Positions 451 to 60,510 of a DNA stretch of 64,000 nucleotides are shown here, in pieces. Under the pieces are notes generated by a model, which was not told where the DNA came from, searched no databases, and was given only the letters and a program-made list of their open reading frames with translations. Source of the stretch: Cyanidioschyzon merolae (Eukaryota); assembly GCA_000091205.1 (NCBI GenBank), contig AP006497.2; one strand, written 5' to 3'. The number at the start of each line of letters is the position of its first letter. Position 1 is the stretch's first letter. The position numbers and the translations under genes were made by a program.

Positions 451-3247
451 CCTAAACATGCTTGGACAGCTGGCGAGGCGGACACGGCTGAGAATTGCTT
501 TGAGCTGCGCTTCGTGCTTGCTGATTCTCCTTCGTTTAATGCAGTCGATGGCGTCTTCACTGTTGCCCAGTGACAGTTTTTCAGTAACGGACCAATAGGG
601 GAATCGTTCGCGTCCAAAACATCGATGGATGCAGGGCGCTATTAGGAATCGTGTAGCTTCTGACTTGAGGCAGACTGGCCGAGATTTCCTCGTATGAAGC
701 ATCCAGTTAAGCCACTGATCGTACGAGTTCGGGACCTAGGGATGCCAATTCTCCACAATTCTCTGGTTTGCTTCCAGCAAACCTTCAATACGGCAACACA
801 GCTAATGCTCGGGACTGAAGAGGCTGCACAGATTGTACATAGGATCCGGGATGTACACATCCGCGTCCCAGAATACCATGACACGTTGCCGCAGCACGTC
901 GGCGATGCGAGCATCCAAAGCGCGGGTACCGAACCTTGTCTGACGAACATCGAAAAAGAACATCTCCATATGCAGATCATTGTCGTGAAGTTCATGCAGC
1001 GCAGCAGCTGAGCGTTGTGCCCACAAATTCGTGGTCCGGTAAAATGCGAAGTGATGCACATGATTCTTGGGATGTTGATAGAGGCAAGTGATCGGCTGGT
1101 GCCACAAGACATCGAGGTGATTGCGAGCTCAGACGAGATGCCGCAACGAGATCCAGAGACGCTTCAGGTCGTTCATGCTTATGATGGTGCTCTGTTTCTC
1201 GGACTGTTGGATGTCGCATGCAGATATCGTTGGAAATGTGATGTGTTCGTGCATTCCTTGCTACCTGCACTCCCGTGTTTTCCTGAAGCGAACGCTCCAG
1301 AGCAAGGAATGCTCCATGTCACTGCAACCCGGGCGCTCTCGCCTCCTCAAAGCTTGAGGACGATATGGTCCCCATGAGTCACATCTACGCCAAAGATATT
1401 ACCATGGACAATTGGATAGCGTACTTTACGGCCTGTTCAGGGAGCGACGGCTTGTCTCTGGCAGCAAACGTAGAGGAGTATTCCGACAACATCGCCTGGA
1501 GCGTTGGCGGAGCCTTTGCAAGGTGTCTCGTTTACAGGGAAGAAACGGAAAGAAGCCGATCAGACAATCGAGATCAACGGAATATCCATTTGTATGCAAT
1601 TCTTGGAACCTTTGCCTGAAGCGAGCGGCTACAATCGATTGCAACCTTTCGTGTAGATGAAGCTCAGGACTTTGTGGTACACGTGGATGCCGGGTCGAAA
1701 GCCGTCATCGTCATCGCCACGCGTCTCGATCAGGAGCGCGGATCCAAACGCCTGATCGGGAGCATGGACGACGCTGCAAAACTATTCGAAGGCTCTTTAC
1801 GATAGCGAGAAGGCCACGCTGGAGGCCAGGATGCGTACCAGCAGGTCGAAGGACGGGATCAGGACCCGTTCGACGCGCTGAGCACCGCATCGAGCCGATG
1901 AGGATGCTATTTACGCAGTACTCAGAGCGTCCGTGAGCATCCAGATGCTTTATGAAGACGAGTTTTGACAGGCGTGTATGTCAGATCGCGCTGGAGTCGC
2001 CAATTGTTCTGATTGGATGGAGACAAGAACATGCTTTAGCCAATTGCATGAATGAGTTGGAAAAGTGACTCGCCGACAAATCGCGTCTATCACTGGTAAC
2101 CTATGGTGCTAGACGTGCCGTAGCGCGCAAAGGCTGCCCGTTTCCCATGATGAACCGAGCGTACAACGAGTGCAGGTATTGATCCTGAGCGATTCCCATC
2201 GATGCGCTCGAGGCGGCATATGCGCACCACGACCATGAACGCATGTGGAATCTGGTAGAAGGAACCAGTGTGAAGCAGATTCGGATGCACTATCTGGTGT
2301 CCGGGAAGCGGACCGGACGCCAGATACCGAAGTGATCGAAGATGAGAGGCTTGCTGTGCTGCGATTCCACGAGCAACAACGCACTTTCTGAACCCAGACC
2401 TGAATGCCTCCATCACCAATACGAAACGTGTCGTGCTTGCAGGGCGTCCGCCGGCCTTGTATCGATCGATGCTTCGAGGTGATCGCTTCGTACTCAATGT
2501 TAGCGTTGTGCTAAAAAGGCTGAAGGCTTCTGATGGGTAAAAATCAATAGCCAGGAGGCCGAGCATTGGAATCTCGAAAGGAGTACGGCATTGGCAGGGC
2601 ACGGTTCAGCAATTCAAAAACGCCAAAAGCGTGGTATATATGCGACAGGAACACTTTCAGCCTGGGCAATCAATGACCAATTGATGAGCTTCATGAATTG
2701 ATGTTGCTGAGTACACGAAACTCGCCATCGACGAAGGTTGATGGCGTTACGTCTCGATCGCAGTGATGAAGGCGTAGCAAACAATGGGGAACAACGAGTA
2801 TTCCCATGCATTTACGGGAAGTAGTCTCCGAGCACGCGGTAGCAGCTTGGGGCGGAAAGATGCCCCGCTTGGTGACCAGCCAGTCACTCGGTCTGTCAGC
2901 CAGACAGCCGGTGCCATGAGGTATCTTGCCGACAGGTGTCTAGCCCGCCATCCATGCTCGTATCCCTTTCAACTACAACGTTCTAGAATTCGCCAGTACC
3001 GTCCACGCTTTGTCACGAACGGCTGTCGCGGACGCCGCCTATGGTGTGTCCAGTTCCTGCCTAACGTTTTCGAATCAATCGGATGCTCGCTAATTTCGTG
3101 CGGCGAAAGAGTCACGCCCCTTGTCGTTGCAGCACAGGCACGCCATCCCCAGCCGCTGATGACCGAATGCAGGGTCAAACGAGCCTTCGCGTGCCTGCAT
3201 ACAGCGCCTGGAAGAGCGGGACGCCGGCACGCGGATGTGCTGACGCA

Positions 3248-15344: not shown

Positions 15345-15700
15345 CAGAGCGAAAAGTTCTCTTCTAGCCTACCATCGAGCGAAGAAGAACAAATGACGAA
15401 GGAGACGAGGGAGAGTGGGACCTTGGCCAGAAAAAATGTGTATCTGACAGGACGGTGACGAGACGTAGTGTCACAGAGGGCACGAGTTCGAGGACTACTT
15501 GCATTCGTGAGTTCAACCAGAGGACACGAACGCAGGGACTCTGTGAACCAAGACTTGAACGCCGCCATGAATATCCGGAGACCTGCGGCGCTGAAGACAA
15601 GACCCGAAGCGCTGATGCCATTCAACTCTGTGGGGCACCCTCTCACACTCGAATATTGCACGGAGATGCTGAAGCCGATGGCGGGCGGCCGGTCGGAAAC
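15345..15700 (+). pseudogene. Copy A: a truncated 'X + RuvC-III tail' fragment of the TnpB/Fanzor-like family
   Basis: The plus strand reads VNQDLNAAMNIRRPAALKTRPEALMPFNSVGHPLTLEY at ~15543..15660. It is preceded by segment X (~15345..15540), which is shared at the nucleotide level with 19083..19280 and 36584..36780. The GGCGGCCGGTCGGAAACGG motif lies at ~15690. Upstream frameshifts are present. Confidence 0.55.
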
Positions 15701-17462
15701 GGCTTGGAGGCGTCTGTCTGGAGGTATATACGGATAACCTCGATGGTTATAGAGCTGCTCAGTTTCACTGATAGGTACGTTGACACGCACACCTCTGAAC
15801 ACGCCGCGGTTGCCCAGCGCCCCGTTGTATGCGAAGCACAGCATTCTGAGTTATCGGACCCAGCACGTCCTTTTCTGTTTCTGTCTATTTTTTCCTTGCA
15901 GCTATTCAACGAACACAATGTATTTAATGAATGGGAGGAACGTCACGAAAAGACTTGACACGCTCACCGCTAGCGAGCGAGGAATGGTTATATGTGTTCA
16001 AGCCAATCACTGCACCGTCCTGAGGTTGACGAACGGACCCTCTCATGGCTCGTATCCTGAACGCTGTCGTCCCAAAATCCAAGTTTCCAGACTCTTTCTA
16101 CAAGAATGTCTCCTGGTCACTCAATTCTCGTCACATATAGTCTATTAGGAAAACGATTAAAGAAGGCACCAGACGAGCAGTTTCCATTCCGTGCATACGA
16201 ACGGTGATGATGGGAAACGGATGCGAGGGAGAAGCGCGCCTCTATACAAGACGGTCGCGCGTCCAGCTCCACACAATCGATTTCGTACTGACACGCGAAT
16301 CCTCATTCCAGGACAGAAAGGTATTCGTCTCACTCGATAGGATTCCGTTCGCGAACAACGGCGGACCTGTGTACGGGTACTCAAACCGGGGCCGAACCGC
16401 TGTTTACAATGAAGAAACTAAAACGAGCATGACGACGGCATCAGTCCTAGTGGAGGAGCTGTCGTGTGGTCTCGTATTTATCGCAGATGGCTCGGGATCG
16501 TTCTCCACCTTATACTTCGTCGAAGCAGTCTTCGCGGATCCTCCTTCCCATATTCTTGCGTCGTGCTCTCAGACAAGGGCGCTTTCTATCACATATCTGG
16601 GTCAAGGGCATCGGCGGAATGTGTGGTGCTTCAAGCTTTATTCTGAAGAGCAGCTGCGCTGTAAATGCAGAACGCTTCGGTACTTGGGCAACGCAAAACT
16701 GGGCCTGTCGAGAACGGGTGCAGCATGTTCCCGCTGCAAACTCGACTCGTCGATGTTGTTATTGTGGGTTCTGCCCTGCACCCGAAACTCACGAGCGGCG
16801 TCGCAGCTAGGCCCTCATCTCTGGACCCATGCATCGTTGCTCTTGACACGTGCGGGAAACCTTGCAGATGCTGAGCATTTTGGGCTCGATCTCCAGAATG
16901 AGCTGAGAAAGCAGTCGGCGCTCAAATCCAATCTGTTCCGTTGCCGTATCGCCAGTCGCACGGCTCCCGGGACGCAACCCGTCTCTGCATCGCTTCCAGG
17001 CTCGCTTGACGCACTCTGGGCCAGCTACTGGGCTAATGCTCCAAACACCCGGTGCATGACCCGCAGACAAGATATTGCACAGCGAGCGTGGACGCGTCAT
17101 TCTGGCGGCCCGCAGGTGACCTTGGATCTGGAAGCGCCTTTCTCCATCTCACGATGGATCATGCCTGATGTAAATGAGAACATTTACGATGTTGGCGCCT
17201 GGGTTCACCATCGAAATCACAATCTCTAGGAATTCTCTGACGACATGCGCGCAGAGGTGTCCGCAAAACGGAAACAGCTGTTGGAATGGATCTGAGCGTG
17301 ATCTCATCCGTGCCCGCACAAGGAGATGCGATCCGCTTCTACCAAATCAAGGTTTGATACATGGCGGACAAGTGCCTTACTGATCTCAGCCCGAAAGACC
17401 GTTCCGAACGCGGTTTCCGTTCCTTGGTTCATGCGGCAAGCAAGGGTTCGACGTCGTATCGG

Positions 17463-19059: not shown

Positions 19060-19331
19060 TCGGGGGTTCTGGCGGGCCGTCATCACTGAGTTCTACGAAA
19101 ACGATAAGAATCCTCTTCTCGCCGACCATCGAACGAAGAAGCGCAAGTGACGACGAAGAAGAGGCGAGGTAGGCAAGAAAAGGTGTTTGCCCGACGGGAC
19201 GATGACGAGTGTGTCGTGGTACGGGGCCACGAGTTCGATGAATCCTTACATTGGAGTGTGTGTGTGTGTGTGCAGTCAACGGCAATGCACGAAAGGAGTT
19301 CGTGAACCGAGCCCTCAATATCATGCGCTGC
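19060..19331 (+). pseudogene. Copy B: segment X plus a 60-bp RuvC-III piece that abuts repeat R1 in inverted orientation (chimeric or nested)
   Basis: The plus strand reads VNGNARKEFVNRALNIMRCAV at ~19283..19331 and runs directly into R1. A (TG)9 microsatellite lies at 19256..19272. Segment X is homologous to 15349.. and 36584.. Confidence 0.5.
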
Positions 19332-20950
19332 GCTGTCAAGACTCCGCACTTTTTTATATCGTCAGGACTGATCTGGCACTTTTCCATCTCGAGCGTCTGA
19401 AGTGTACACCCCAGCTCGTGGTCTATGCAGGACGTCCGGAACTCGTCTATCGGGAATGTGACAAAACGCCTTGCGCACTCCTTGTAAGCGCGTGTCGGTG
19501 AGGCTGGAGTGCACCCTGTTTTCGACGCCCAGCGCCCTGCTCCCTATGCTGCTACGAGGCTTTGACGCTTGTCCTCCTTGAGGGTGCTCAGCGCATGAAA
19601 AAAGTTCCCAAATGCACGCCATTCCGCACAGTACAAGTTCATATGCGGACGATGGCATGGACATTGGCTTTTGAACGCTCTCTCCGCCGCTGCTTCCATT
19701 GCCGCTCTCTTAGCCCCGAGTGAACATGTGCCGGTCTCTCTTGTCCTTGCAGTTCCCGAGTCAGCAGTCGAGGGATGTCGGTGGCAGCGTTCAAGTTCCG
19801 ATTTCGCCACTTCCCGCCCGTGGTAACGCGTCCCGCGCGTAGGGCCAAGTTGCGGTCCGCACGTCGTTCCCCACGTTCATCTTCTGTGCACATACAGCTT
19901 CGGTGTGTCTTTCGCTGCGCTGACACCGGACTGTGATCAGACGTTCGCATATTCGTCTGCCGCATCTCTCACGCGACCGAGCGCCGCCCTGTGGCATGCG
20001 AAGGCTTGCTTCAGCGCTCGATGCATGTCCGGGACTGGCGTAGAAGGCGCTCGTCGAATCCATTCTTTGTCTGCATACCCGATGCCGTGACGAACGATGA
20101 CGGGCTGGTTCCGGGCGATTCCCTTTGCGAGTGCGCTGTATGGTGCAAAAGCAAGCATACGCAGTCCCGTTTGAGAAGGGATTCGTGGAATGCGATATTG
20201 GCCTTGGTGAGGCAGGCACCGGAATGATAACACTCATAGGAGAACCAGTCGAGTGATTTCGATCCGTCCACGCTGTTCTACAGCGAAGCGGCGATCCAGT
20301 CTGCACCAGAGGCGATCGCTGCGACGACTATAGTCAAGGACTTCATTCCATGCAACCAGAAGAGGCGAGTGCATCTGGGCGCGAATCCCCGTGTAACGTA
20401 CGATGCAGCTGTCGAATTCCCTGTCTCGCGGATGACCACAGGGACACAAGGATTTGTCTTTCGAAAGGATTCGATCATTTGATACGAGAAGCACGATGAG
20501 GCTTGGGCGTGAGCGTGTGAACACGTCGTCAAGGAGCGACGTCGGGCTCCGTGCCGCGCCAGTCCAGTGGCGAGCATTGCTGTGCCCACGGGTTGCCTTG
20601 AAACAGAAAGATCGAAAACATGAAGCATGCATGATTTGCGCATGCTATACACAAGGAACGCGATAGCGGTAGAGGCTTGTGCCTACAAATTGGTTCATAA
20701 AATCGGCTATTTTACAAACCTTTGTTTGGCGGCGTCGAGAAGCATCTCGATCCCGGTGACGTATCGAGTTACAGGGGCAACGCGTCGAAAGTGGCACGCA
20801 GTAACGCCGACCGGGAATCCGGAAACTGCGCATGAATTTCCAAGCCCTGATTGTTGCACTTTGAGTGTCTAGACCATATATCTAGGACAATGCCGGGAAA
20901 AAAAATCGAAAGGCAGGGCCAGCGCGTGCAGTGCAGTATCCCGTATTCAT
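19332..20950 (-). mobile_element. R1: a ~1.6 kb repeat carrying a decayed TnpB/Fanzor-like coding region; it is copy 1 of a direct-repeat pair
   Basis: It is about 97-98% identical to 39027..40645, with a constant offset of 19,695 bp. The minus strand encodes fragments in three frames, including WRAFGNFFHALSTLKEDKRQ and the zinc finger ...FRTSC..HELGC...CQISPDDIKKCG at its low-coordinate end. Multiple frameshifts leave no intact ORF. Confidence 0.7.
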
Positions 20951-36569: not shown

Positions 36570-36910
36570 GACAAAAAGAAACACGATAAGATTCCTCTTA
36601 TTGCCGAGTATCGGACGAAGAAACGCGAGTGACGAAGGCGAAGTGGAAGAAGCGTGTTGATAGGCGAGGAGAGCTGTTTGCCCGACGAGGCTGTGACGTG
36701 ACCTTGGTGGCACAGAGGGCACGAGTCCTTATGCACCCTTGCGTTGATGACTTGTACCAGAGACAATACACGCTGGGAGTTCATGAATCGAGACTTCAAC
36801 GCTGCGCCATTAAAAACAGACGATGTGCGGTGCTGAAGAGGCGACCCGCGTACCCGACGCGAGCCAACTTTGTGGGCCAGCCTCTCACACTCGATGTGTG
36901 CAACGATAAA
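36570..36910 (+). pseudogene. Copy C: a truncated 'X + RuvC-III tail' fragment, frameshifted
   Basis: The plus strand reads EFMNRDFNAAPLKTDDVRC, then shifts frame to IKNRRCAVLKRRPAYPTRANFVGQPLTLDVCNDKL. Segment X lies at 36584..36780. The copy sits in the promoter region of the minus-strand hydrolase gene, which starts at 36306. Confidence 0.55.
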
Positions 36911-37591
36911 CTGAACTCACTAGTCCTGAAGCTTTACGTATATCGGCGTTATACAGCAGTTCGCTACATGTCGGAAGCGTCGGATGCCACGTGGTTCCTA
37001 AATTCGCATGAAAGTTCACTACAGCAACGCCGTACCACACACCATGAGTGATGCTCGTCGTCTTTGCAAAGACGCTTCCGTGCATTGTCGCTGGTATAGG
37101 GGCAGTCAGCTTGTCAAATAGCGTCGTGCGGGTACCCTGAATCAACTGGAAACCAAGCATCCAATCGATTCAAGGTGTTTCTCAGTCACAGTTGGGCGTC
37201 AAGTTGTCCTGATCATGCAGCGACAGAGGCGGCAGCCGCTCAGCACCCCCTGAGTCGGAGTTCCACGTCTGCAATCCGCCATTGTGCTCGGCTGAAGAAG
37301 CGTATCGACAAACGTGCAACAGGCATGAGCCACAGATCGGCCGCTGAGCTACATGTATCCGGACGCTCGTTTCCGCCTGCAGAGCCATCACGTATGCGCA
37401 TGAGAAAGTTCGCACCCGATGCATACATCTCGAAGCAAACCGCATGCTGCCGGCTGTGGATAAAGTGCTCTATTCAACGGACAAGTCGAACGCGAACGCC
37501 CTCCAAGTGGCGGCACCACTGAATCGGACAATGTTTACAACCTGCCATGCCTTGCGGTATGCTGCTAACGCTCATTCCAGGCGCTCGAGGT

Positions 37592-38668
37592 CTAGTTCAA
37601 GGGTTTCGTCGCAAGCCACACCCGATGCCGCGGCGTATTGTTTTCGGTCTGCACGTCAGTGAATCCACTGATTGTCAGTAAACTGACCATATCGACGCGT
37701 TCATACTCAGAAAAATACGGTTCAGTGCTGCGGAATATGGCTGCTCCGACCGGGGGTATCGAACGGAACGCTTCGCTGTGCGGATCAGAATCCATCATCG
37801 CCAACATGCCTCCGGGGCGAAGCACTCGATACGCCTCTACCACGAGACGCTCGGTCGCTGCCATGGGCAGCTCATGTGTCACCAGGGAACATAACACGAG
37901 GTCCACCGAATCCGCTTTCTGAGGGAGGTTCTCGACCGCGGCGTGCTTAAAACGCACCTGAATCGATGACGGGTAGCTGCGCTCCTCTGCACGTAACTCG
38001 GCAACCGCAAGCATGAACGTCGATAAATCGATTCCTGTTATGTCGAGCGGGCGTTCCGGATACCGTGCTAGCCATGCATCGATGAAGCGCATCGTGCTGA
38101 GTCCAGTCGACGCACCCAGGTCGAGTGCTACCAGTGGACGTCCCATGGGCACGAGCAGCTGTTCCAGACGAGGCCAGACTCGGTCCAGGAAGGTGTCGCG
38201 TAGCAGGCGGTCACCTTGCGTGGGCGGTGCTTCCGGGAAAAGGCGTGCATGGACCGCCAGAGCCGACGACTCGACTTCCATGGCAGGAATCCAGCCAAGG
38301 TTCCCTTCCGGATACGTATGGAACGGTGCACGTACGTAGTAGTCTGGATATACGAGGTCGCGTTCGACAAGTCGCGCTCGTTTCTGTTCGAGGGTGTCCC
38401 ACTTGAGCCGCAGCTCACGAACGTTCTCTCGCCAGGGCACGCCGATCTCCTCCGCTCTCTTGACGACACCTGCACGGCCAATTCGCTTCAGTAACCAAGC
38501 AGTGGGCGGGAAAGCTAAAATCCCTTGTACTATCAGAGCCGGCAGTTTGCCCTCGGGGTTTCGCGTCACTGGAGTCGTCGCCGAAGCGTGAATCCATCGA
38601 CAAGCTCGGTATCGAGTGCACTTCTGAGACGGCAGTCTCACGCATGGAACAAAGTTTAACTGCGTCAT
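37592..38668 (-). CDS. Class I SAM-dependent methyltransferase (Methyltransf_11-like)
   Basis: Motif I is VALDLGASTGLSTMRF. Downstream blocks are DLVLCSLVTHELP and LRPGGMLAMMD. The likely start is MTQLNF at 38668. The longer ORF, 37592..39505, reads through in frame from a Fanzor/TnpB-like remnant upstream and is judged chimeric. Confidence 0.55.
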   Translation of the reverse strand: MTQLNFVPCVRLPSQKCTRYRACRWIHASATTPVTRNPEGKLPALIVQGILAFPPTAWLLKRIGRAGVVKRAEEIGVPWRENVRELRLKWDTLEQKRARLVERDLVYPDYYVRAPFHTYPEGNLGWIPAMEVESSALAVHARLFPEAPPTQGDRLLRDTFLDRVWPRLEQLLVPMGRPLVALDLGASTGLSTMRFIDAWLARYPERPLDITGIDLSTFMLAVAELRAEERSYPSSIQVRFKHAAVENLPQKADSVDLVLCSLVTHELPMAATERLVVEAYRVLRPGGMLAMMDSDPHSEAFRSIPPVGAAIFRSTEPYFSEYERVDMVSLLTISGFTDVQTENNTPRHRVWLATKPLN

Positions 38669-38744
38669 GAGGCTCGCTATCAAACGCCGTTCTAAAGTCG
38701 AACGACGTCGGACGTGTATCGTAGTGGCGGTGAACGTGCCTTCG

Positions 38745-39026
38745 ACCAGAGGTCTTCGACTGTCGTGCAGACGCCTTCCGGTCTTTTCGGACCGGCCACC
38801 TACTCCTGATTCCAACTTTTTCTCATATAATTCCACTTTGAGCGATTGTCCAACAAAGTTCTCTCTTGTCCACTCTGGAGGTCTTTTCTCCAGCACCGCA
38901 CATCTCCTGACATTGACAGCAGCGTTGAAGTCTCGGTTGACGAATTCCATACGTTTCTTGCCGCCGTTGGTTGTGCTCACCAGCGCATGTAGTGCTCGAA
39001 CTTTCGTCCTGCTTCCCATTTGCTCT
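38745..39026 (-). pseudogene. TnpB/Fanzor-like C-terminal segment (RuvC-III motif DFNAAVNV) plus a conserved 3' tail
   Basis: GGKKRMEFVNRDFNAAVNVRRCAVL matches the TnpB/Cas12 RuvC-III consensus (AD.NAA.NI) with the catalytic Asp present. It is preceded by a CxxC...CxxCG zinc finger and the FVTFPIDEFRTSC block (compare TnpB VxVdPxYTSqxCsxCG). A 3' motif CAGGAGTAGGTGGCCGGTCCGAAAAG at ~38745..38770 is shared with copies at ~55440 and ~15690. Confidence 0.65.
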
Positions 39027-40645
39027 TCTGTCAAGACTCCGCACTTTTTTATATCGTCAGGACTGATCTGGCAATTTTCCATCTCGAGCGTCTGAAGTGT
39101 ACACCCCAGCTCGTGGTCTATGCAGGACGTCCGGAACTCGTCTATCGGGAATGTGACAAAACGCCTTGCGCACTCCTTGTACGCGCGTGTCGGTGAGGCT
39201 GGAGTGCACCCTGTTTTCGACGCCCAGCGCCCTGCTCCGTATGCTGGTACGAGCCTTTGACGCTTGTCCTCCTTGAGGGTGCTCAGCGCATGAAAAAAGT
39301 TCCCAAATGCACGCCATTCCGCACAGTACAAGTTCATACGCGGACGATGGCATGGACCTTGGCTTTTGCACGCTCTCTCCGCCACTGCTTCCATTGCCGC
39401 TCTCTTAGCCCCGAGTGAACATGTGCCGGTCTCTCTTGTCCTTGCAGTTCCCGAGTCAGCAGTCGAGGGATGTCGATGGCAGCGTTCAAGTTCCGATTTC
39501 GCCACTTCCCGCCCTTGGTAACGCGTCCCGCGCGTAGGGCCAAGTTGCGGTCCGCACGTCGTTCCCCACGTTCATCTTCTGTGCACATACAGCTTCGGTG
39601 TGTCTTTCGCTGCGCTGACACCGGACTATGATCAGACGTTCGCATATTCGTCTGCCGCATCTCTCACGCGACCGAGCGCCGCCCTGTGGCATGCGAAGGC
39701 TTGCTTCAGCGCTCGATGCATGTCCGGGACTGGCGTAGAAGGCGCTCGTCGAATCCATTCTTTGTCTGCATACCGGATGCCGTGACGAACGATGACGGGC
39801 TGCTTCCGGGCGATTCCCTTTGCGAGTGCGCTGTATGGTGCAAAAGCAAGCATACGCTGTCCCGTTTGAGAAGGGATTCGTGGAATGCGATATTGGCCGT
39901 GGTGAAGCAGGCACCGGAACGATAACACTCATAGGAGAACCAGTCAAGTGATTTCGATCCGTCCACGCTGTTCTACAGCGAAGCGGCGATCCAGTCTGCA
40001 CCAGAGGCGATCGCTGCGACGACTATAGTCAGGGACTTCATTCCATGCAACCAGAAGAGGCGAGTGCATCTGGGCGCGAATCCCCGTGTAACGTACGATG
40101 CAGCTGTCGAATTCCCTGTCTCGCGGATGACCACAGGGACACAAGGATTTGTCTTTCGAAAGGATTCGATCATTTGATACGAGAAGCACGATGAGGCTTG
40201 GGCGTGAGCGTGTGAACACGTCGTCAAGGAGCGACGTCGGGCTCCGTGCCGCGCCAGTCCAGTGGCGAGCATTGCTGTGCCCACGGGTTGCCTTGAAACA
40301 GAAAGATCGAAAACATGAAGCATGCATGATTTGCGCATGCTGTACACAAGGAATGCGATAGCGGTAGAGGCTTGTGCCTACAAATTGGTTCATAAAATCG
40401 GCTATTTTACAAACCTTTGTTTGGCGGCGTCGAGAAGCATCTCGATCCCGGCGACGTATCGAGTTACAGGGGCAACGCGTCGAAAGTGGCACGCAGTAAC
40501 GCCGACCGGGAATCCGGAAACCGCGCATGAATTCCCAAGCCCTGATTGTTGCACTTTGAGTGTCTAGACCATATATCTAGGAAAATGCCGGGGAATAAAA
40601 TCGAAAGGCAGGGCCAGCGTGTGCAGTGCAGTATCCCATTCCAAT
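39027..40645 (-). mobile_element. R2: copy 2 of the 1.6 kb direct repeat; it is continuous with a RuvC-III-encoding tail at 38745..39026
   Basis: The ORFs at 39057..39371, 39486..40001 and 39973..40347 are near-identical to those at 19362..19664, 19791..20306 and 20278..20652. The minus strand across the boundary reads ...EFRTSCIDHELGCTLQTLEMENCQISPDDIKKCGVLTEEQMGSRTKVRALHALVSTTNGGKKRMEFVNRDFNAAVNVRRCAVLEKRPPEWTRENFVGQSL. Confidence 0.7.
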
Positions 40646-41945
40646 CTAACGCTCGGCTAGCATAAACCGCTGTTCACGAAACGGCATCCATGCAATAAGA
40701 GGAGTCAGCGTACGCTCCGCAAGTCGAAATTGGACTGGGTATTCGGCAGCCTCGCAGGCGCGTTCATCGCTCTGGGCGACGAGTTCCAGAACTGGAGAAG
40801 TCTCTCTGCTCCTTCGGTGCCTCCGCGTGCAACCGAGACTTGGCCAAACAAGTGACAGGTAGCAGGCGCCCGTCACGCAATCCCCAGCATCTTCGACCGT
40901 ATCATCCGTACCGGGAATTCGGATGCTCAACACGGCCAGGCGACGATGCGCGTCCGTTTCGGAGCAGGCGAAGCGGTGCGCTCCAACGCCGGCACCCGTG
41001 GCGCCTCGCATCTCTTCGGCGAAGCGACTCGAACGCGTCAACCCCAAGATATTTCTCTAAGACTTGGCAAAGCTATTGAATTGCCGTGACGCACACAACG
41101 AAGCGCTACCCCGATTGCACCCTGCTTTTATGGTACACGGTCGATGCACCGAGCCAGATTGCCATCGGTAACCGGAAATGAAATCGATGCGCTCATCCAG
41201 ACGTTTTTGCGTATCTGAACCCTGGACCCGTATTCCCCGTAACACTGCACGCTTGATCGATCCCGCAACGCTCAGAGTGCAACGCCCATGGTACACGTCA
41301 AGCAGAGACAACACGATTTTCATCGATCCTTGGAGGCATTCGTTCAAGGCAGTTGCGTCATTTTGCATGCCGAGCGCTCGCTTGGCCGAGATCCGCGCAC
41401 CTCTGTGCGCGGCGTCCATGCGCCGGTACCCGTGTCCGTGCGCGGCTGAATGGCGCAGCGATCGCCGTCGCGCCGCCGCCACGCATCGCTGTCCGGTGTC
41501 GCATCCGTGATCGCGGCATCGCATCGGATGCGTGCAGCGCATGCACCCCGCGCGCCCAGCACGGATCGCGCAACCAAAGCATCGACGTCACGCGCCCTGA
41601 GCGCAGCGCCCGCGGACGCTTGAGGGCGTCGCGTGCATTCACGACGCTCGCGGGATCGGAATCTACTTCCGTGCATTTCGCAGCTTTGAGTAAACTTCAA
41701 GACACAGAAGCGCAGCTTATTTCGATCTCAAGTTTCATCTAGCGTTCGCTTACGTGTCGCAAAAGTGGAGAAAGCAATATGCTGGTTCTGCCTGCGCTCT
41801 GCAGCGTACCAGGCACCGCGTCACTCTGATCCGCAGTTGTTGACCTGCGCGCCCTCATCGACACACAGACGTGGTATCCAGGACGAAGCGCGTCCGCTGG
41901 TCTCGTTGTGATCCGGCAAATGCGCCCACGCCCGTGGCGCAAACA

Positions 41946-43106: not shown

Positions 43107-43454
43107 CTTTGTTCAATAGTTTTCGTGCCACTCGGTTCAGAACGGTTTCCTCGAACCGTTTCGAGAAACGCTTGACGCTGACACCACGACGAGAACGCTC
43201 TGAGCTGGTAACCCGCCCGCCGACCGAACGTTCGTCCTGACGCTGCGGCGCGCAGGCTGCGGGTGCCCGGTCGAGCAGTGGTGGTGGCGTCTGAAAATGC
43301 GCACGCGCGCGCGCTAACGCAATCTCCGGCATCGGCACCGACCGCACTAGATAGAACAAAGGACAGAGGCTATCCAGTAACTAGCAACGATATAAGGATT
43401 TATTTTCTCTTCTATGATTAATGTTAACATGACGGAAGGATTTCCGTATTGTCA

Positions 43455-44130
43455 AAAGTTTAGCTTCTAGGCGGAAGGTCCCGCGATCTGGACAAGTCTG
43501 TTAGGCTGATGCTTCATGCGCTCCCGCAATAGCTGTTGCTCTAGCGAGACCTGAGCAACTCGTCCGCAAACGCAGTTCATTCTGGGACTCAGAGCGGATA
43601 CACTGCGTTTCGATGTCGTCACGGTCGCAGTGGACTTCTTGTATATTGCTTCGCGCTGCAGCAGGCAATAGGTCCGTCTGCGCGATTGGCTCGTTCCCGG
43701 AATGCTCATGAATCCTGATTCCGTAGCAGGTGAATGTAGGCAAAAGGTCCGTCTGCGCGATTGGCTCGTTCCCGGAATGCTCATGAATCCTGATTCCGTA
43801 GCAAGTGAATGCAGGCAAAAGGTCCGTCTGCGCGATTGGCTCGTTCCCGGAATGCTCATGAATCCTGATTCCGTAGCAGGTGAACCACGCCTCGGGCCGG
43901 CACCCTTTGCAGTATGGCAAAAACGTCCTACCTCCGCGATGTATCGTCATCAGCGGTATGAGCGATAAAGCGGACGCTCACGACAGGTACTCGGCGCACG
44001 ATAGAACATACGAAACGACCAGCATATCCGTGAGGAAATATGGGTAAAGGAACTTGGAGCTAGGGTGCAGCACCATGACCAACGCTCTTCTGATTACCAT
44101 TATCCATCCGGCAACCTGTCATCCATGCTC
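43455..44130. repeat. Dispersed ~650 bp non-coding repeat (copy 1) with an internal 75-bp unit triplicated in tandem at 43671..43895
   Basis: It is homologous to 57975..58510. Shared strings include AGGCGGAAGGTCCCGCGA, ACGCAGTT(C/T)ATTCTGGGAC, GTCCGTCTGCGCG...GGCACC(C/T)TT(T/C)G(C/T)AGTATGGCAAAAACGTCCT, GCACACGATAGAAC.TAC.AA.CGACCAGC.TATCCG and ATTACCATTA(T/C)CCATC. Three 75-bp tandem units differ at 2-3 positions. Confidence 0.75.
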
Positions 44131-44334
44131 CATGTCCACCGGTTTGTCATCGAGAGAGACGGAGAGAGACCGGATAGCGCCATCGATGCGCTATCGTCGA
44201 TCGCCGCCGCTGCCATCATCTGTTGAGGGTGCCTCCAGCCGCCAGCGCGCGCCCGGATCGCGGCGACCGCTCTGCGCATCCGTCGTCCAGAGGCACGGAG
44301 TTGTGAACCTGCCCCCAGACACGTACGCTGCACC

Positions 44335-53625: not shown

Positions 53626-55047
53626 TTACGTTGTTTCTGATGAGCCGGTTGGTCCCTGCAGGAGAACATCTTCACCGAGGATGCGCAGACCTGGTACGCT
53701 CGGGGTGACTTCCGGTGCACTGCGACCCGGGCGCGTTTGCTGCTGGTCGAGAAACGCGTGCAGGGTGGAGAATCCAGCTCGTTCCTCTTGATACATTTGT
53801 TGCATTCGCTGTTGGAGCGCGTCTAGCTCCTGATCGATGATGCCGCTCTGCTGAACGGAGCTGTACGCGTCTGCAACTGTGGTTTGCGGGGTCTCCCGGC
53901 CGAACGAGTCGCTGGTGGTATTACTAACAGAGGCATTTTCCAATTGAGATGAATCGGGTTGTAAAAGCTCCAGCGGGTCCGTGTCGTGGATGTGCTGGCC
54001 AGAGATCGCACCCACCTGGCGCAGGTCAGGCACTGGCCGGTTCGAGAGATCTCCCTGATCGCTTAGATACGTCAGTGCTTGCGTCCATTCAGGACTGAGG
54101 GCTAAAAAGTCCAAACCAGCAGATGCTAGCTGGCTGTTCATTATCTCCACGGAAGAAAAGAGCCGGAGCATGAACCCTTGTAGGTTGTGGAGCTGTTCCT
54201 CCCGTTCAGATTCTCGCTGCTCACTTTCGACGAGTCGCTGTTCAAGGCGAGCATAAAGACGACGCAGTTCGCTAAGCTCTCGCAATAACAGGCTGTTGTC
54301 GCGGCGAAGACGAGCAGCCTCGTCCTCGAGCGAACCATACTTACCAATCTCGATTGTTCTGTTGCCCCGTCCGAAGATGCGACTCAACCATGGCGGTTTT
54401 CGCTGATTCCCTGAATCCGAAGTGTTGAAGGTTGCCAGATCCTCCTCGCCCAGCAGCTCAGATGCAGCCAACGGGACATTGATGTGCTGCTGAAGGTAGG
54501 CAGCGTTCGCGTCTAGCCGCGGTTTGGAGGCAACCCCTCCGGGCAGCATGCGCACACCCTGCACTGGCTTGAAGGCGCTGCCATGGTTCACCGAGCCCGA
54601 GGAGCCGCTCGTACCAGATGCTCCCAGTACCCTCTTCCGTCGCTCGGGCCGGTTCCGCTTGATCTGACTCAAAAGGTCCGGCCGGTCTCGTCGGAAGAAC
54701 TCGTGCTGGAACTCCCAGCGCTCGTGACTGATCTTGTGAAACCCGTACTGATTCAACTGTCTCACAAAAGACGACATGTTGCTGTGTTTGAAATAGGCAG
54801 GAAGCACTTTTTCGGTGAAGTCTCCGACCCGCCAGATAACGAAAGACTCCCCAGACTCTTCCCAACTGACAGTGTCCGCCGTCTCAGCATCCTGGACGAG
54901 ATCGTACACTTTTTGGATGAACACCGTGGTCTGAGGCTTATCCGTATCCATTTTTGAGTCAAAGCTTGGGTCCTGTGTGATGTCTGCAGCGCCCATGGCG
55001 AATACCAGCGCCGTGCACTCGGAAAAGCGAGCGCGAATACCAAGCAC
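53626..55047 (-). CDS. Heat shock transcription factor (HSF-type DNA-binding domain plus coiled-coil HR-A/B)
   Basis: The DBD reads FIQKVYDLVQD..TADTVSWEESGESFVIWRVGDFTEKVLPAYFKHSNMSSFVRQLNQYGFHKI..ERWEFQHEFFRRDRPDLL.QIKR. Heptad repeats follow at LRRDNSLLLRELSELRRLYARLEQRLVESEQ. Alternative starts are M18 and M33 (54951). Confidence 0.8.
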   Translation of the reverse strand: MLGIRARFSECTALVFAMGAADITQDPSFDSKMDTDKPQTTVFIQKVYDLVQDAETADTVSWEESGESFVIWRVGDFTEKVLPAYFKHSNMSSFVRQLNQYGFHKISHERWEFQHEFFRRDRPDLLSQIKRNRPERRKRVLGASGTSGSSGSVNHGSAFKPVQGVRMLPGGVASKPRLDANAAYLQQHINVPLAASELLGEEDLATFNTSDSGNQRKPPWLSRIFGRGNRTIEIGKYGSLEDEAARLRRDNSLLLRELSELRRLYARLEQRLVESEQRESEREEQLHNLQGFMLRLFSSVEIMNSQLASAGLDFLALSPEWTQALTYLSDQGDLSNRPVPDLRQVGAISGQHIHDTDPLELLQPDSSQLENASVSNTTSDSFGRETPQTTVADAYSSVQQSGIIDQELDALQQRMQQMYQEERAGFSTLHAFLDQQQTRPGRSAPEVTPSVPGLRILGEDVLLQGPTGSSETT

Positions 55048-55439
55048 GCCACAAGGAGCGTTCTCAACAAAAGCGAGAGCCGCCTACCTCGACAACTACT
55101 TTCAGATAGATAGACAGACAGCCAAACACAGACAAACCTCCAAGTCGAGTCTTTCCCCGTACCGATATCGTGGCACCCGAGCAGAAAGCGCACCCTCGGG
55201 TAACTTGTCGTCTTCGTGCAAGCGAAGCAACACACTGTTCGTTCGGGCTGTTGCCCGCTGCATCAGGGAGCGCGTCGATCGATGCGCGATCACCGGCCGC
55301 ACCGGCACGCCAGTCAATCATCGATGAAAAGCTGCGTAACCCGTGCCCGCTGTGGTGGTGGTGGTGGTACCGAGCGACGCACCGCCGCCTCCGCCGCCAC
55401 ACTCTGTAGAATACGTATCCACCGAGCCGATCGGCGGAC

Positions 55440-57400
55440 GCTTCGCCGGCTTTTCGGACCGGCAACCAACTACTCCTGCGTGCAACTTCAGGTCGTACTA
55501 TTCGACCTGGAGAGGTTGTCCCAGAAAGTGGGGTCGTGTCAGCTTCGGAGGTCTCGTCTCCTTCAGTGCACGTCTCCTAATATTGATTGCAGCGTTAAAG
55601 TTTCGGTTCACGAATTCCATACGTTTCTTGGCATTGGTTGGTATCACCGACGCAAGTAGACCTCGAACTCGCAACCTCCACGCCATCAGGTGCTCTGGCA
55701 GCGCTCCGTACTTTGCTATATCCTCAGGGCTCCGCTGGCACTTTTCCATCTCGGCACTCTGAAGTGTACACCTCAGCTCGTGGTGTAGATAGGAGTTTCG
55801 GTTCCCATCTATTGGCAACGTGACAAGACGGTGTGCGCACTCCTTGTACGTTCTTGTCGTTGGAGCGGGTGTACACACTTTTTTAGACGCCCGGCGCCCT
55901 GCGACGTATGATGTTACGAGCCTTTGGCTCCTGTCCTCATTGAGGGCGCTCAACTGGTTGAAAAAGTTGGCGAATGCACGCTTTTTTCCCACTGTACAAG
56001 CTCATACGCAAGCGATTCATCCGGGGCTTTGTATATTCTTTGCACAGCGCTTCCCAATGAGCAACGCGAACTTTTATGAACTCCCGAATGACCTGAAAGT
56101 CCGCTCCATGGCTCGTCACCTCGCTCATAGCTTCCAGATGCTCGTTCACTCCTTCATTTTACGTCTCAATTTTCTTCCTTGCATTCATTATTCCCGATTC
56201 TCGGTAATATCTAGCTTCTGAGAGCTTCAACAGAGGCATGTTTTCCTGGCGCAAGCCGCCGTCAATACCATCTTCCCCACGCTCGGATACCGCAATAGGT
56301 ATAATATTCATGTTCCCGGGGCCCGCGCCAACGACATAGTCCTTACCCTGCACCGCATGCGTCGCAGGATCCGCCTCCTTTTTTTTCATGCCTCGCCGAC
56401 GGCGAAGCATGAAGATGCAATGGGACGATCCACTTTCAAGCGCCGATCGTGTACACACACGGCTGCTCCATCGGCTTCGATCATCTCAGTAAATAACTTT
56501 TGTTTGCTCGTTTTCAGACGTTTGAAATCGAACATATTCACCCAATTACGTCTCCCGGTTTTCGCCCGTAAACTCCTTGCTGCTTAGATCGAACTCCGGA
56601 TAGATCTCCTTCATTTTGCTGTAAAGTACGTAGGGGCCAACTGTCACAAAATGTGACTTGATGTTGCATAGCGGAACGACATTGAAGCGCTTACCCATTC
56701 GGGCAGCGTTCCGTTTCTCTGACTCTTCATTTTTCCCCTCACACGCTGCTCCATCTCCGCCTTGCGTTCGAGTTCTCGATTCAGGAATACGAAATAGTGC
56801 AGGATGAGCGGATAAAAACTTTTTTTCATCTCTGATACCTTTTCTGCTGGATTTGACAAGCCCCAAGACTACACAGTGCTCGTGAACAGCCATACGAATG
56901 ACAGAAGCTTCATTCTTGCCCCTGCGTGATGCCTTCTTGTCGACGAATTCGATCCCCTGTCCATTCTGGCGATCGTTCGTGATGCCACTGATGATGGCCC
57001 GTATCCCCTGGCGGGAGAGGCCCGGGCACAGTGTAAAAATAGCCCGTATGATGAAACGTTCGAGGTTCACGATCATATGGTTCTTCCGGTGCTTGAGGAA
57101 CTTGATTGCCCCGTAGGTGTAAATATCACCATCATCCCTGCATCGAGTACCGTCGAAGCGGAATTCGGCGTAATTCTCGTGGAGGGCGTGCACTCGCTCA
57201 TTTTTCGTCGACGTTTCCCCTGTGCCAACCATCAGGTGGCGAATAAACGTCTTGCTGAAAAATCCCCCCGGGACCTCGACCATTTTGATGCCCATCACGT
57301 CCCGAAACATCTTCTTCATCAAATACATAAGCCCTGACGGAGCCTTCATAATACTCATGGAGTACGACTCGACACGGTTTCTGAGTGCATCTCACAACTT
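55440..57400 (-). mobile_element. Copy E: a diverged, most complete (~1.95 kb) member of the TnpB/Fanzor-like element family, with lower GC in its 5' two-thirds
   Basis: Four consecutive minus-strand ORF segments are 56546..57358 (270 aa), 56159..56458, 55937..56149 and 55498..55992. Together they give ~620 aa when frameshifts or short gaps are allowed. The C-terminal segment aligns at ~50% identity with copy D: RAFANFFNQLSALNEDRSQRLV ... YKECAHRLVTLPIDGNRNSY ... CQRSPEDIAKYG ... KKRMEFVNRNFNAAINIRRRALKETRPPKLTRPHFLGQPLQVE. A candidate RuvC-I-like block is KDYVVGAGPGNMNIIPIAVSERGEDGIDGG at ~56250..56330. The 3' flank 55440..55497 carries the conserved CAGGAGTAGTTGGTTGCCGGTCCGAAAAG motif. Confidence 0.55.
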
Positions 57401-57974
57401 TCCCTTTTAGGGATCCTTGATATGCCGAAGAAGACGGGCTTTCACAACCATCTCGTCATAGTGCCGTCTCTCTTGCAGCCTCTGACGTCGGACTTCCCCC
57501 TTTTTGCTTTTCGTCCTCTCCTGTTCTTCTGTACTTGACACTGTTTCTTCTTGCAGCCGGCGACATGATGCCTCCATAATCCTCCATTTCCATTTCCATG
57601 ACTTGCACTTTTCATTTTTTTCAAAAAGAACACGCTTTGAAAGCCTCTGCTATAACTCACGAAAAATCACTGGAATACACTTACTTGAGGGTTGGAACAC
57701 AGTTGAGTTCAAAAACTCGACGTTGCTATGACTTCAACGTAAATCCATCCGGTAAGTTAGAGCAACACGCTGATGATCAGGATCGTGTTCCCCTTGAACG
57801 GCGGCGTACGCATGGTGTATCATACCTTCCAGATTTAGAGATGCGCCTATCGACAGCACTATGCGGAGCAAAGAACAAAGACTTACCACTAAATGGCGAC
57901 GATACATCGATGTCTTTCGCTCTCTACGATAAACGTGAAAAGGGGAAAATGTTTCTGACCTGTCGAAAGCGTAC

Positions 57975-58510
57975 CTTAAAGGCGGAAGGTCCCGCGAACC
58001 GCACGAATCTCCCAGGCTTGCGCCTCATGCGCCTCCCAGTGGCGGGTGCTAGAGTGAGATCAAAGCAAATCGTACGAAACGCAGTTTATTCTGGGACCAG
58101 GGGCGGGCGGCTTGCTTCTGGGCGTCGCCCTTGTCGTGGAGGACTCCCCGGAAATCGCTTCTCGTTGCCGCTGATAGGATGTCCGTCTGCGCAGTTTGCT
58201 AGTTCCCGACATGCTAGTGAATTCCGACTCCGTATCAGGTGGAGCATTCCTCGAGCCGGCACCTTTCGTAGTATGGCAAAAACGTCCTGTCTCCGTGATG
58301 CATCGGCATCAGCGGTTGAGGCGCTGTTGCGGATGCAGTAATGCAGGTAATCGGCACACGATAGAACGTACAAACCGACCAGCGTATCCGAAAGGAAGTA
58401 TAGGTCAAGGAACTTGAGGGTGAGGTGCAGCAGCATGATGGACGCTTTTCCAATTACCATTACCCATCGCGCAATAAGGGATCCATGGTCAATGCCAACG
58501 TTTTGTCATC
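57975..58510. repeat. Dispersed ~650 bp repeat (copy 2, single 75-bp unit)
   Basis: See 43455..44130. The offset is ~14.5 kb and the orientation is the same. This copy overlaps the plus-strand ORF 57598..58341, which is therefore probably spurious. Confidence 0.75.
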
Positions 58511-58959
58511 GAAAAAATCTCCCAACTCAGCTCTGCATCATGCCGCCGCTGGAGCGCGCGCTCGATCCGCCACCACGCGATCGTACCGATGGCAGAAATG
58601 TCAGGCCTGGAACGGTGCTGCTGCTGCTGCTGCGTGATGCATTGGGCGCTGGAACTGCAAGCCGCTCACTTGCTACTGCCGCGCCATCTGGCATTTGGTC
58701 AGCTTACCATCACATCATCTCATACATCCGTAACTGTTTCACGCGCTTCTTGTCTACCAGTTTCGAAGAGCAGTCGTGCCCGTGATTCGCTCATTTCATC
58801 CTGGACGCATCCGTGTGAATCGTGCAGAGTCGACTCCTGCAAGTATGGGGTGCTCACGTCGAGGGCGCGGAGGTGCAGCGAGCGCGCAGTCGCATGTCCA
58901 GCGCCATGGGTTGCCGCCGAGCGACGTGACGTATCGTTCAGTGGCAATCAACATCATTG

Positions 58960-59470
58960 AACAAGTTGGCGACTGCACGCCTCTTGCCTCCATGTAACTG
59001 TTGCCGTCGGTGTCGCTAGCGCGATATTATGTACTCCTGCCAGATAACGTTCGCATGAGCGACGTTGGCGCTCACGCACTCTGGGAATGAAGTGCGTAAC
59101 GCTCGCTACACTGCTCCGTGCTGTGGTCAGCGCTTCGGAATGGGCCCCCAAACCGCCATTCCACTTATTGGCATGCCCGTTGGCGTCCATCACGCTGACT
59201 CCCCGATCGTACCATTTCGTGGAAAACTCGAACGGATTCATGCGCTTCCTGTTCAGCCATTTGACTTGTTTGTCTTGATCTAGAGGGACGTCGATGGCCG
59301 CAAAACCCTTCGACGGGGGTTGCGTGCGCTTTTCCTCGCCCATACGCGTCGCTTCATCGCCGTTCGCATGAACGGCACGGAAACAACACATCATGTGATT
59401 TGTTGCATAGTTTTTCGTTGAGAACGTATGTATTCGGATGGTGTGATGAGAAAGTAGCCCTTCAAACACC
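58960..59470 (-). CDS. Hypothetical small protein (171-aa ORF); no confident family assignment
   Basis: This is an uninterrupted ORF sitting between the 650 bp repeat copy and COQ4. The KW/Y-rich segment PFEFSTKWYDRGVSVMDANGHANKWNGG is not recognised. Confidence 0.25.
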
Positions 59471-59742
59471 GTTTGAAAGCTCTATCTTTGCCGCAAAACC
59501 TTGCGGATATGGACGACGAGATGCATGGTCCATGCGCCTGCTGACCACAGCATCCAGGATATGTCTAATTAAGATCTAGCTTGTCGCAATCGAACAAGGA
59601 CATGTCGACATCTCATCGCGACTACGCTCCACGTATCTGAGCCGTCCTGTGCTCTTACGTATCTGCGAGAAAAACAAACAAAACCTAAAAGGGCTTGCCA
59701 GATCAGGTGTTCCTGAATTCACTGCTCTAATTATAACTATAC

Positions 59743-60510
59743 TTGTTCTGGGAACGCCAGCTCCCAGTTGCCTGCGAAGCGAGCCTTCAGCTTCCGCGCT
59801 CGTCGACGCCACTCGGACTGCGCAGCTGCTCCAGTGGTCGTATGCAACACGCCCTGAGCAAAGCCGGAAGACTTTTCCTCGCAGGTGCTGCGGGCGCTTT
59901 CGTACTGAGAAACCCAGTCCGCGCAGATTTGGTTGCCACTGTCGGGGAAATCTTGCCTGGCACCGAAAGCGTTCTCCGTGGTCACTTAAAGGAGCTTCAG
60001 AAAACCGAAGAGGGTCGCTCTATTTTAAAAGAGAGGCCACAGATCACCGCGGAGACTCTGGCAGCGGTTGCTCTGCTCCCGCCTGAGACCCTTGGAGGTG
60101 CGTACTATGCGTTCTTAAAAAAGCACAGTTTCAACTCAAGTGAGCGAGCAGAGGCTTCTTTCATCTCCGATCCCGATCTAGCTTACATAGTCCAGCGTTA
60201 CAGGGATATCCATGACATTTTCCACGTGGTAACGAACCTCACGCCCACGTTGACCGGAGAGGTGGCTCTAAAGTACTTTGAAGCGCTGCAAATGGGCTTG
60301 CCAATGGCCGTACTTGGAGCAACGTTCGGGACATTCCGTCTTACCGCGAGGCAGCGGGCGGCCCTGTTCCGGGACTATGTGCCTTGGGTCGAACGGAATG
60401 CTCGCTCATGTGAAAATCTCCTGGGAGTGTACTTCGAGCGGTACTGGCAAATGTCACTCACAGAGCTGAGGAAGAAACTCAGGCTCGAGCCTTTTCGGAA
60501 AGAGTTCTGA
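59743..60510 (+). CDS. COQ4: Ubiquinone biosynthesis protein COQ4 (mitochondrial)
   Basis: The ORF is colinear with COQ4. Matching blocks are LLAAGSA, GE.TG, GR.IL.ERP.I...TL, P.NT.G..Y..F, ELAYVMQRYRE.HD..H...G..T...GE...K.FE..Q..LPM and Y.PWA. The ORF reads LFLAGAAGAF ... VATVGEILPGT ... GRSILKERPQITAETL ... PPETLGGAYYAFL ... LAYIVQRYRDIHDIFHVVTNLTPTLTGEVALKYFEALQMGLPMAVL ... YVPWVERNARSCENLLGVYFE. The N-terminal presequence is R/S-rich, with an alternative start at M34 (59842). Confidence 0.7.
   Translation: MFWERQLPVACEASLQLPRSSTPLGLRSCSSGRMQHALSKAGRLFLAGAAGAFVLRNPVRADLVATVGEILPGTESVLRGHLKELQKTEEGRSILKERPQITAETLAAVALLPPETLGGAYYAFLKKHSFNSSERAEASFISDPDLAYIVQRYRDIHDIFHVVTNLTPTLTGEVALKYFEALQMGLPMAVLGATFGTFRLTARQRAALFRDYVPWVERNARSCENLLGVYFERYWQMSLTELRKKLRLEPFRKEF

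Follow-up and report, generated by a model that had tools for sequence, protein, structure and literature searches.

Does the minus strand between a heat-shock transcription factor (HSF) gene and a COQ4-like gene on chromosome 15 of Cyanidioschyzon merolae 10D hold a nuclease gene adapted to a new use, or the remains of a mobile element? We addressed this question in a window of 64,000 nucleotides (the whole stretch of DNA analyzed, from contig AP006497.2), in which a preliminary description had marked positions 55440-57400 as a near full-length, lower-GC Fanzor/TnpB-like gene, here called copy E, with substituted catalytic positions. The HSF gene (BAM81544; 53626..54996, minus strand), the COQ4-like gene (BAM81545; 59842..60510, plus strand) and the SDA1 gene (BAM81546; 61236..63647, minus strand) were each located by an exact protein match. 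The translations of five large open reading frames (ORFs) of the window are identical to annotated proteins of C. merolae 10D; CMO170C, a Raf-related MAPKKK and a pair of hedgehog-like proteins are among them. Because BAM81544, BAM81545 and BAM81546 are consecutive accessions, positions 54997-59841 are without any annotated gene. It had been stated that HSF lies about 400 bp downstream of copy E on the same strand. The strand was given correctly; the distance, counted from the HSF start codon at 54996, is ~500 bp to the premature stop of copy E and ~370 bp to its last recognisable element sequence.

The four minus-strand ORFs reported for copy E were all recovered (57358..56546, 270 aa; 56458..56159, 99 aa; 56149..55937, 70 aa; 55992..55498, 164 aa), together with an extra minus-strand piece of 51 aa at 56541..56386. 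The 270-aa ORF was not found in the protein collection. When the pieces were stitched together (618 aa), 70 proteins were matched, all of them from JGI or ENA metagenomes, and the best match was P0001, a protein of 752 aa that is 50% identical over 99% of the query (E=3e-204). A hidden Markov model (HMM) of the broader clade matched the pieces colinearly at profile positions 3-601 of 646. From three-frame translation and homolog alignment, a single ancestral reading frame was traced from ~57577 down to 55498 and beyond. Its start lies upstream of the 57358 given previously, and two further stops were encountered in the added part.

To place this protein family, its profile was searched with HMMER against 1.84 billion representative proteins, from which 1857 relatives were retrieved at E<=0.001, and 90 diverse full-length clade members were assembled into an alignment (A4). 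The A4 profile matched the solved Fanzor1 proteins among PDB sequences, namely Parasitella PpFz1 (9cf0, 5.7e-22), Spizellomyces SpuFz1 (8gkh, 9.2e-17) and Guillardia GtFz1 (9cer, 1.3e-8), with the TDG, DPG, DEFRT and NRD blocks aligned between the clade and these proteins. Since copy E is without a continuous protein, the fold evidence comes from its intact relative P0001. The AlphaFold2 (AF2) model of P0001 built with A4 reached a pLDDT of 83.3 and a pTM of 0.81, and in a Foldseek search of the PDB its top seven hits were all Fanzor1 structures (SpuFz, PpFz and GtFz; E=1e-16 to 4e-14), with a target-normalised TM-score of up to 0.74. Cas12 and Fanzor2 structures appeared from rank 8 onward, at E ~0.01. 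The profile matches and the modelled fold of the intact relative thus bear out the reading of copy E as a Fanzor/TnpB-like gene.

Other searches of the same material were less informative. Pfam scans of the ORF pieces, the stitched protein and the intact homologs returned no match, and among ten clade members scanned, one distant member gave a weak sub-threshold match to PF07282 (TNB). With a shallow alignment of 19 sequences, the PDB profile search found no match and the AF2 model reached a pLDDT of 33; both analyses succeeded later because the HMMER search supplied 90 diverse homologs. It was also noted that no conserved Cys pairs of a zinc ribbon lie between DEFRT(S/T) and NRD in the 90-member clade, where the region between RuvC-II and RuvC-III holds a single Cys, present in 64 of the 90 members. 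By this alignment, the absence of a zinc ribbon is a property of the clade and not of copy E alone.

The element that carries this ORF is larger than first described. Homology of copy E to metagenomic copies at the DNA level runs from 58508-58523 down to 55434, or ~3.08 kb, and a second line of evidence for the 5' end is a solo TE-N2-like copy, which aligns to 58512..57851. At the other end, weak similarity detected by a covariance model reaches 55367. We therefore delimit the whole element, of ~3.1 kb, at 55367..58512 on the minus strand, with a 3' terminus blurred by decay; as it extends to ~58512, the coordinates 55440-57400 account for no more than about two thirds of its length. Its 5' non-coding segment (57851..58512, minus strand) is the equivalent of a separate element, TE-N2_CMe, and these 660 bp are 69-78% identical to an independent solo copy at 44153..43339 of the window. 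An A-rich leader (57578..57850, minus strand), which is the lowest-GC part of the element (0.425), separates this segment from the Fanzor1 ORF remnant (REC/WED/RuvC), which lies in pieces at 55498..57577 on the minus strand as delimited by three-frame translation, homolog alignment, tblastn and HMM.

An element of this kind has already been described. CMe-1A is the single Fanzor1 family of C. merolae, with ~150 copies that are ~80% identical to a ~3-kb consensus; it is without terminal inverted repeats, its target-site duplications could not be determined, its 5' 635 bp are 95% identical to TE-N2_CMe, and some of its copies remain intact (Bao & Jurka 2013, Mobile DNA 4:12; PMC3627910). Copy E is 78.4% identical to a consensus that we built from 48 metagenomic copies, and its assignment draws on this consensus and on the published description. 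We conclude that copy E is a near full-length dead copy of CMe-1A, one of ~150 in a family known since 2013, and, as that family was reported for this very genome, an ordinary one. Related stretches were encountered at least 353 times in a handful of metagenomes. A few metagenomic copies (L001, L004 and L025) keep open frames of about 770-820 codons from stop to stop, and the majority of the others are wrecks similar to copy E.

The extent of decay was determined by alignment of copy E to the family. Five frameshifting indels and four in-frame stops were found, all read on the minus strand, with two of the indels hidden within the 270-aa ORF. This hidden pair, taken from the consensus indel list, consists of +1 nt at ~56859 and +2 nt at ~56747 (56747..56859), so that the intervening stretch of the 270-aa ORF is in a non-ancestral frame. 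The ancestral frame between these points is the other one (...NPAEKVSEMKKSFYPLILHYFVFLNRELERKAEM...), in which the translation of ORF 56859..64644, compared with the homologs, reads NPAEKVSEMKK..LILHYFVFLNRELERKAEM. Another +1 nt frameshift at ~56547 (56545..56549) terminates the 270-aa ORF. A frameshifting deletion, recognised from the alignment and the consensus indel list, falls in the tandem-repeat linker (56382..56416), where one 25-aa unit is left in copy E compared with two to four in intact copies. The fifth indel is a +1 nt frameshift at ~55987 (55985..55989; YSGKK|RAFANFF). Alignment to P0001 placed two of the stops near the start of the frame, a TAA where homologs have Tyr (57409..57407) and a TGA where they have Arg (57394..57392). 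Further along, a TAA stands at the Trp of the family motif KKIETW (56159..56161), and a premature TAG replaces a family Leu (55498..55500), beyond which the ancestral ORF continues for ~35 codons (VELYEKKLEAVVGGRSKK...).

All three catalytic residues of the RuvC domain are substituted. At RuvC-I, Asp is replaced by Gly (GGC; 56321..56323, minus strand) in a column where all 90 clade members have Asp, and copy E reads VVGAGPGN where the family reads VVGADPGN, in agreement with the earlier remark that the RuvC-I Asp is lost. The stretch GEDGIDGG, proposed as a second RuvC-I block, corresponds to AEDGTDGN of the family and holds no catalytic column. At RuvC-III, the reported change of Asp to Asn (55600..55602, minus strand; Asp in 87 of 90 members) was recovered, with NRNFNAA at 55608..55588 against the family NRDFNAA, a motif also found in the window at 38938..38918 and 36786..36806. 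The preliminary description had missed a third change, that of the RuvC-II Glu to Gly (55804..55806, minus strand), at which copy E reads IDGNRNS and the family VDEFRTS; all 90 members have Glu at this column. The D-E-D triad is thus absent from copy E, which has G, G and N, and is present in the family consensus and in L001 and L004. Two occurrences of NRNLNAA elsewhere in the window, at 39498..39478 and 19803..19783, were also considered as RuvC-III motifs; they are in another frame, belong to a 1.6-kb segmental duplication of 97.9% identity, and are regarded as chance.

Beyond the protein, the family possesses a structured 3' module. Conservation across copies is strong in the terminal ~135 nt of the element, which overlap the final ~27 codons of the ORF and can form five helices. 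The module ends with ...GGCGTTTGTTGT, where similarity between copies ceases. In a plain alignment, 79-79.7% of cells were paired, compared with 39-55% when the partners were slid. From a MAFFT alignment of these 3' ends, RNAalifold derived a consensus structure with hardly any pairs (-3.3 kcal/mol), and covariation of a hand-defined structure on the plain MAFFT alignment was no better than in shuffles. When 62 distinct copies were aligned with the covariance model, both sides had changed in 21 pairs, a number reached by 1 of 500 shuffles, and the covariation score lay above all 500; as this alignment was itself fitted to the structure, the covariation support is suggestive. No Rfam match was found within 54000-60000. 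In its position and orientation the family module is similar to the omega-RNA scaffold known from solved Fanzor1 systems, which makes it a candidate for that role.

Copy E retains a degenerate remnant of this module (55367..55478, minus strand), a candidate omega-RNA scaffold or set of right-end hairpins. The covariance model (R1) scored it at 16.7 bits (E~0.01), most of helices 3 and 5 being deleted, compared with 116 bits for copy C of the window (38811..38677) and 50-142 bits for 70 metagenomic copies, most of which exceeded 100. With the frame, all three catalytic residues and the 3' module decayed, the description of copy E as degraded and catalytically inactivated holds, and the signs of decay first listed are real but understate its extent.

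We then compared the locus with a sister strain. No orthologous flank was found among 80 metagenomic loci retrieved by protein similarity; an ortholog was located through the HSF protein, on the ENA metagenomic contig L083, which follows the window colinearly for 20 kb with an identity of 98.9%. This contig holds copy E at the same site and with the same fragmented ORFs, and its ORF remnant carries two new 1-bp deletions. Between L083 and the window, the ORF remnant differs by 18.7 substitutions per kb and the 5' part of the element by 16.1 per kb; the values are 2.2 per kb for HSF, 3.7 per kb for SDA1, 7-10 per kb for the remaining coding sequences and 7-9 per kb for intergenic DNA elsewhere. 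The copy E region therefore has the highest substitution density of the neighborhood. To judge from this comparison of two sequences, the divergence is the opposite of constraint, and copy E is a neutral pseudogene relic.

The distribution over codon positions speaks against this reading: substitutions relative to the consensus are unevenly spread over positions 1, 2 and 3 (0.195, 0.165 and 0.275), and 20 of the 39 differences between the window and L083 fall at ancestral third codon positions (p about 0.05). This unevenness may derive from subfamily divergence before insertion, from gene conversion between paralogs, from their mixing during assembly, or from mutation bias. The third-position excess relative to the consensus would be expected from divergence between once-functional subfamilies, and for the excess between the strains, as for the clustering of their differences, conversion or mixing of paralogs is a possible cause.

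Taken together, these results point to an old, dead CMe-1A Fanzor1 insertion in the intergenic region between HSF and the COQ4-like gene, which has no role as a nuclease or RNA-guided binder and drifts neutrally, a reading to which we assign a probability of about 0.93. Intact CMe-1A members encode a protein of ~780-820 aa with a Fanzor1 fold and a D-E-D RuvC triad. By analogy, the structured ~135-nt segment that overlaps the end of their ORF would give an omega-RNA scaffold that guides DNA cleavage. Frame, triad and 3' module are all lost from copy E.

The alternative that survives best is co-option of the relic without its protein, whether it supplies HSF with promoter or 5'-flanking regulatory DNA or with a non-coding transcript, or gives rise to a short REC-like peptide from the 270-aa ORF. 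The relic may be transcribed, and both strains examined retain the insertion at this site. No sign of constraint was found in either strain, however, and we consider such co-option very improbable.

A domesticated derivative, as had been suggested for copy E, was found to be more doubtful still. TldR proteins are nuclease-dead TnpB derivatives that serve as RNA-guided repressors, with ORFs that are intact and conserved and guide RNAs that are kept. A comparable nuclease-dead Fanzor would act as an RNA-guided DNA binder or repressor and might regulate the adjacent HSF gene. The substitution of all three RuvC catalytic residues, the location of copy E on the strand of HSF and 370-500 bp ahead of it, and the slight third-position excess among the between-strain differences are in keeping with such a role. 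However, a protein of this kind would have to come from a locus that has no continuous ORF and no gene annotation, in which the five frameshifts and four stops are common to both strains and have been followed by further 1-bp deletions in L083. The guide-RNA-like 3' module is degenerate, the substitution density is the highest of the neighborhood, and an identity of 78% to the consensus is typical for dead copies. On these grounds domestication is very improbable, and neutral decay of a CMe-1A insertion accounts for the catalytic substitutions.

The lower GC content of the region had prompted a further proposal, that copy E is a recent arrival of foreign origin, for instance from a giant virus. 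The GC dip itself was reproduced, with values of 0.49 for 56001-57000 and 0.48 for 57001-58000 in a window of 0.555 overall, which makes this the lowest-GC 2 kb of the window. In the sliding-window calculation called for at the outset, the profile was not uniform, and the N-terminal coding part ranked 8th lowest of 629 windows. Fanzors have been found in giant viruses (Bao & Jurka 2013, PMC3627910), which lends the proposal some initial appeal. However, homologous copies at other loci likewise have a low-GC 5' half (0.40-0.51, with flanks of 0.55-0.60), and the same is seen in the family consensus, whose ORF has a GC content of ~0.50 throughout and whose leader has 0.42. The GC3 of the N-terminal half of the consensus is 0.62, which is host-like (0.57-0.62 in host genes), and the deficit sits in the A-rich leader and at codon position 2 (0.34), where it is due to amino-acid composition. 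As the low GC is common to other copies and the consensus GC3 resembles that of the host, a foreign origin is not indicated.

The history of the family argues in the same direction. The ~150 old copies in the C. merolae genome and the related stretches in metagenomic contigs show that CMe-1A is old and abundant in this lineage. Copy E is itself 22% diverged from the consensus and is present at the same site in the sister strain, and the best structural relatives of the family are eukaryotic Fanzor1 proteins and not the Fanzor2 of mimivirus. Recent acquisition is thus as hard to credit as domestication, and the GC dip is better read as a trait of the CMe-1A family. Least of all, and close to negligible, is the chance of a functional multi-exon gene, raised at first as four segments joined by splicing. 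In its favor, the order of the segments follows that of the family protein. However, the frame changes are +1 or +2 nt indels or a repeat deletion relative to the consensus, and coding-part insertions are just 1-3 nt with none of intron size, so that no introns are present. The segments overlap or abut and leave introns no room, in-frame stops stand where Tyr, Arg, Trp and Leu are conserved, and C. merolae has just about 27 introns genome-wide.

The value of copy E is therefore mainly negative. Its catalytic substitutions belong to the overall decay of a pseudogene and are no sign of a domesticated nuclease-dead Fanzor, and its GC dip is no evidence of horizontal transfer. As one of the ~150 CMe-1A copies catalogued in 2013, copy E itself matters little. 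What is useful for testing an active red-algal Fanzor1 lies in the wider family, namely the intact metagenomic copies, which span 778-819 codons from stop to stop, the conserved 3' module and the absence of a zinc ribbon in the clade.

Compared with known systems, copy E is closest to CMe-1A itself, with which it has in common the species, a length of ~3 kb, an identity to the consensus of ~80% (78.4% for copy E), a 5' segment of ~640-660 bp related to TE-N2_CMe and a Fanzor1 protein. At the family level no difference was found; some CMe-1A copies are intact, whereas copy E is not. Among the solved Fanzor1 systems, SpuFz1 (8GKH, 9CEU-9CEZ), PpFz1 (9CF0-3) and GtFz1 (9CER-T), P0001 has the same overall fold, with a target-normalised TM-score of 0.72-0.74 to SpuFz, and the same TDG, DPG, DEFRT and NRD motifs. 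The clade differs from them in a sequence identity of just 13-15%, in the absence of a CxxC...CxxC zinc ribbon between RuvC-II and RuvC-III, and in a variable linker of 25-aa tandem repeats ahead of RuvC-I, while copy E differs further in having G, G and N for D, E and D and in the loss of its open frame. The TnpB proteins of IS200/IS605 and IS607 elements are likewise transposon-encoded, RuvC-type RNA-guided nucleases with a structured RNA region that overlaps or follows the 3' end of the gene. The family differs from prokaryotic TnpB in that its clade is eukaryotic, its N-terminal region is much longer and its element encodes no TnpA, and its fold-level similarity to TnpB and Cas12 is marginal. 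With TldR, copy E has RuvC catalytic substitutions in common; the intact ORF and guide RNA of TldR are missing from copy E.

Apparently intact copies of the Fanzor1 transposon family CMe-1A were identified in metagenomic Cyanidioschyzon-like contigs, with open frames of 772-819 codons from stop to stop. Three such copies were located at L001:9800-12256, L004:2923-5256, and L025:831-3146, and the first two possess all three RuvC motifs. Because of these apparently intact sequences, CMe-1A may still be active in natural populations.

Directly N-terminal of the RuvC-I strand, the CMe-1A protein carries a tandem repeat (KHEExKEAxPATQxVxDNDxVV) that varies in unit number, each unit measuring ~25 aa (75 nt). 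The repeat spans residues ~375-469 of the intact 752-aa metagenomic protein P0001 (L001:11120-11400) and was disordered in the AF2 prediction. Intact copies contained 2-4 units, compared to a single unit in the decayed copy E (window 56382..56416). In the alignment of copy E between two strains that are 98.9% identical (L083:5200-10000 and window 54997..59841), substitution density was ~2x that of other intergenic DNA, and the differences were clustered, with 20 of 39 falling at ancestral third codon positions. This pattern may derive from gene conversion or from assembly mixing among paralogous copies.

The window's remaining CMe-1A pieces were all 5'-truncated, C-terminal/3' fragments, comprising copy C (38767..39420, minus strand) and pieces at 19238..19651 (minus), 15459..15734 (plus), and 36738..36925 (plus). 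Copy C is much younger, and its 3' anchor shares 91% identity with the consensus. It lies in frame with the ORF of a methyltransferase gene, generating a spurious 637-aa ORF (37592..39505). It was noted that a 1.6-kb segmental duplication (39028-40651 against 19333-20956; 97.9% identity) includes part of copy C together with 1.3 kb of unrelated upstream sequence. 'NRNLNAA' motifs within this duplication are in a different frame and look like chance occurrences. A solo TE-N2_CMe-like copy of the element's 5' segment (43339..44153, minus) contained an internal duplication of ~75 bp.

The 3' terminus of CMe-1A comprises a conserved module of ~135 nt that overlaps the ORF end, as found at the 3' ends of loci L001-L082 (e.g., L029:5336-5473). 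Five candidate helices were identified in this module, with some compensatory changes, and it could represent an omega-RNA scaffold or right-end hairpins. The module is intact in copy C (38677..38811, minus) compared to its decayed state in copy E. In copy E, the site expected to hold the family's terminal hairpin is occupied by a (CCA/GTG)n microsatellite of ~6 units (55352..55368).

Two much more diverged Fanzor1-like relics, with ~26-34% amino acid identity to P0001, were found at 664..2537 (plus; clade HMM matches at 664-1008, 1358-1657, and 2346-2537) and at 58743..59256 (minus), directly upstream of copy E. An older or second Fanzor1 family could have left these remains; the account by Bao & Jurka (PMC3627910) gives C. 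merolae a single family.

Lastly, the stretch from RuvC-II to RuvC-III lacks the canonical CxxC...CxxC zinc ribbon in the alignment of 90 diverse Fanzor1 clade members (columns of P0001 residues 659-720), and its only common Cys occurs in 64 of the 90. CMe-1A's clade differs in this from SpuFz and PpFz, which possess a zinc ribbon between these motifs.
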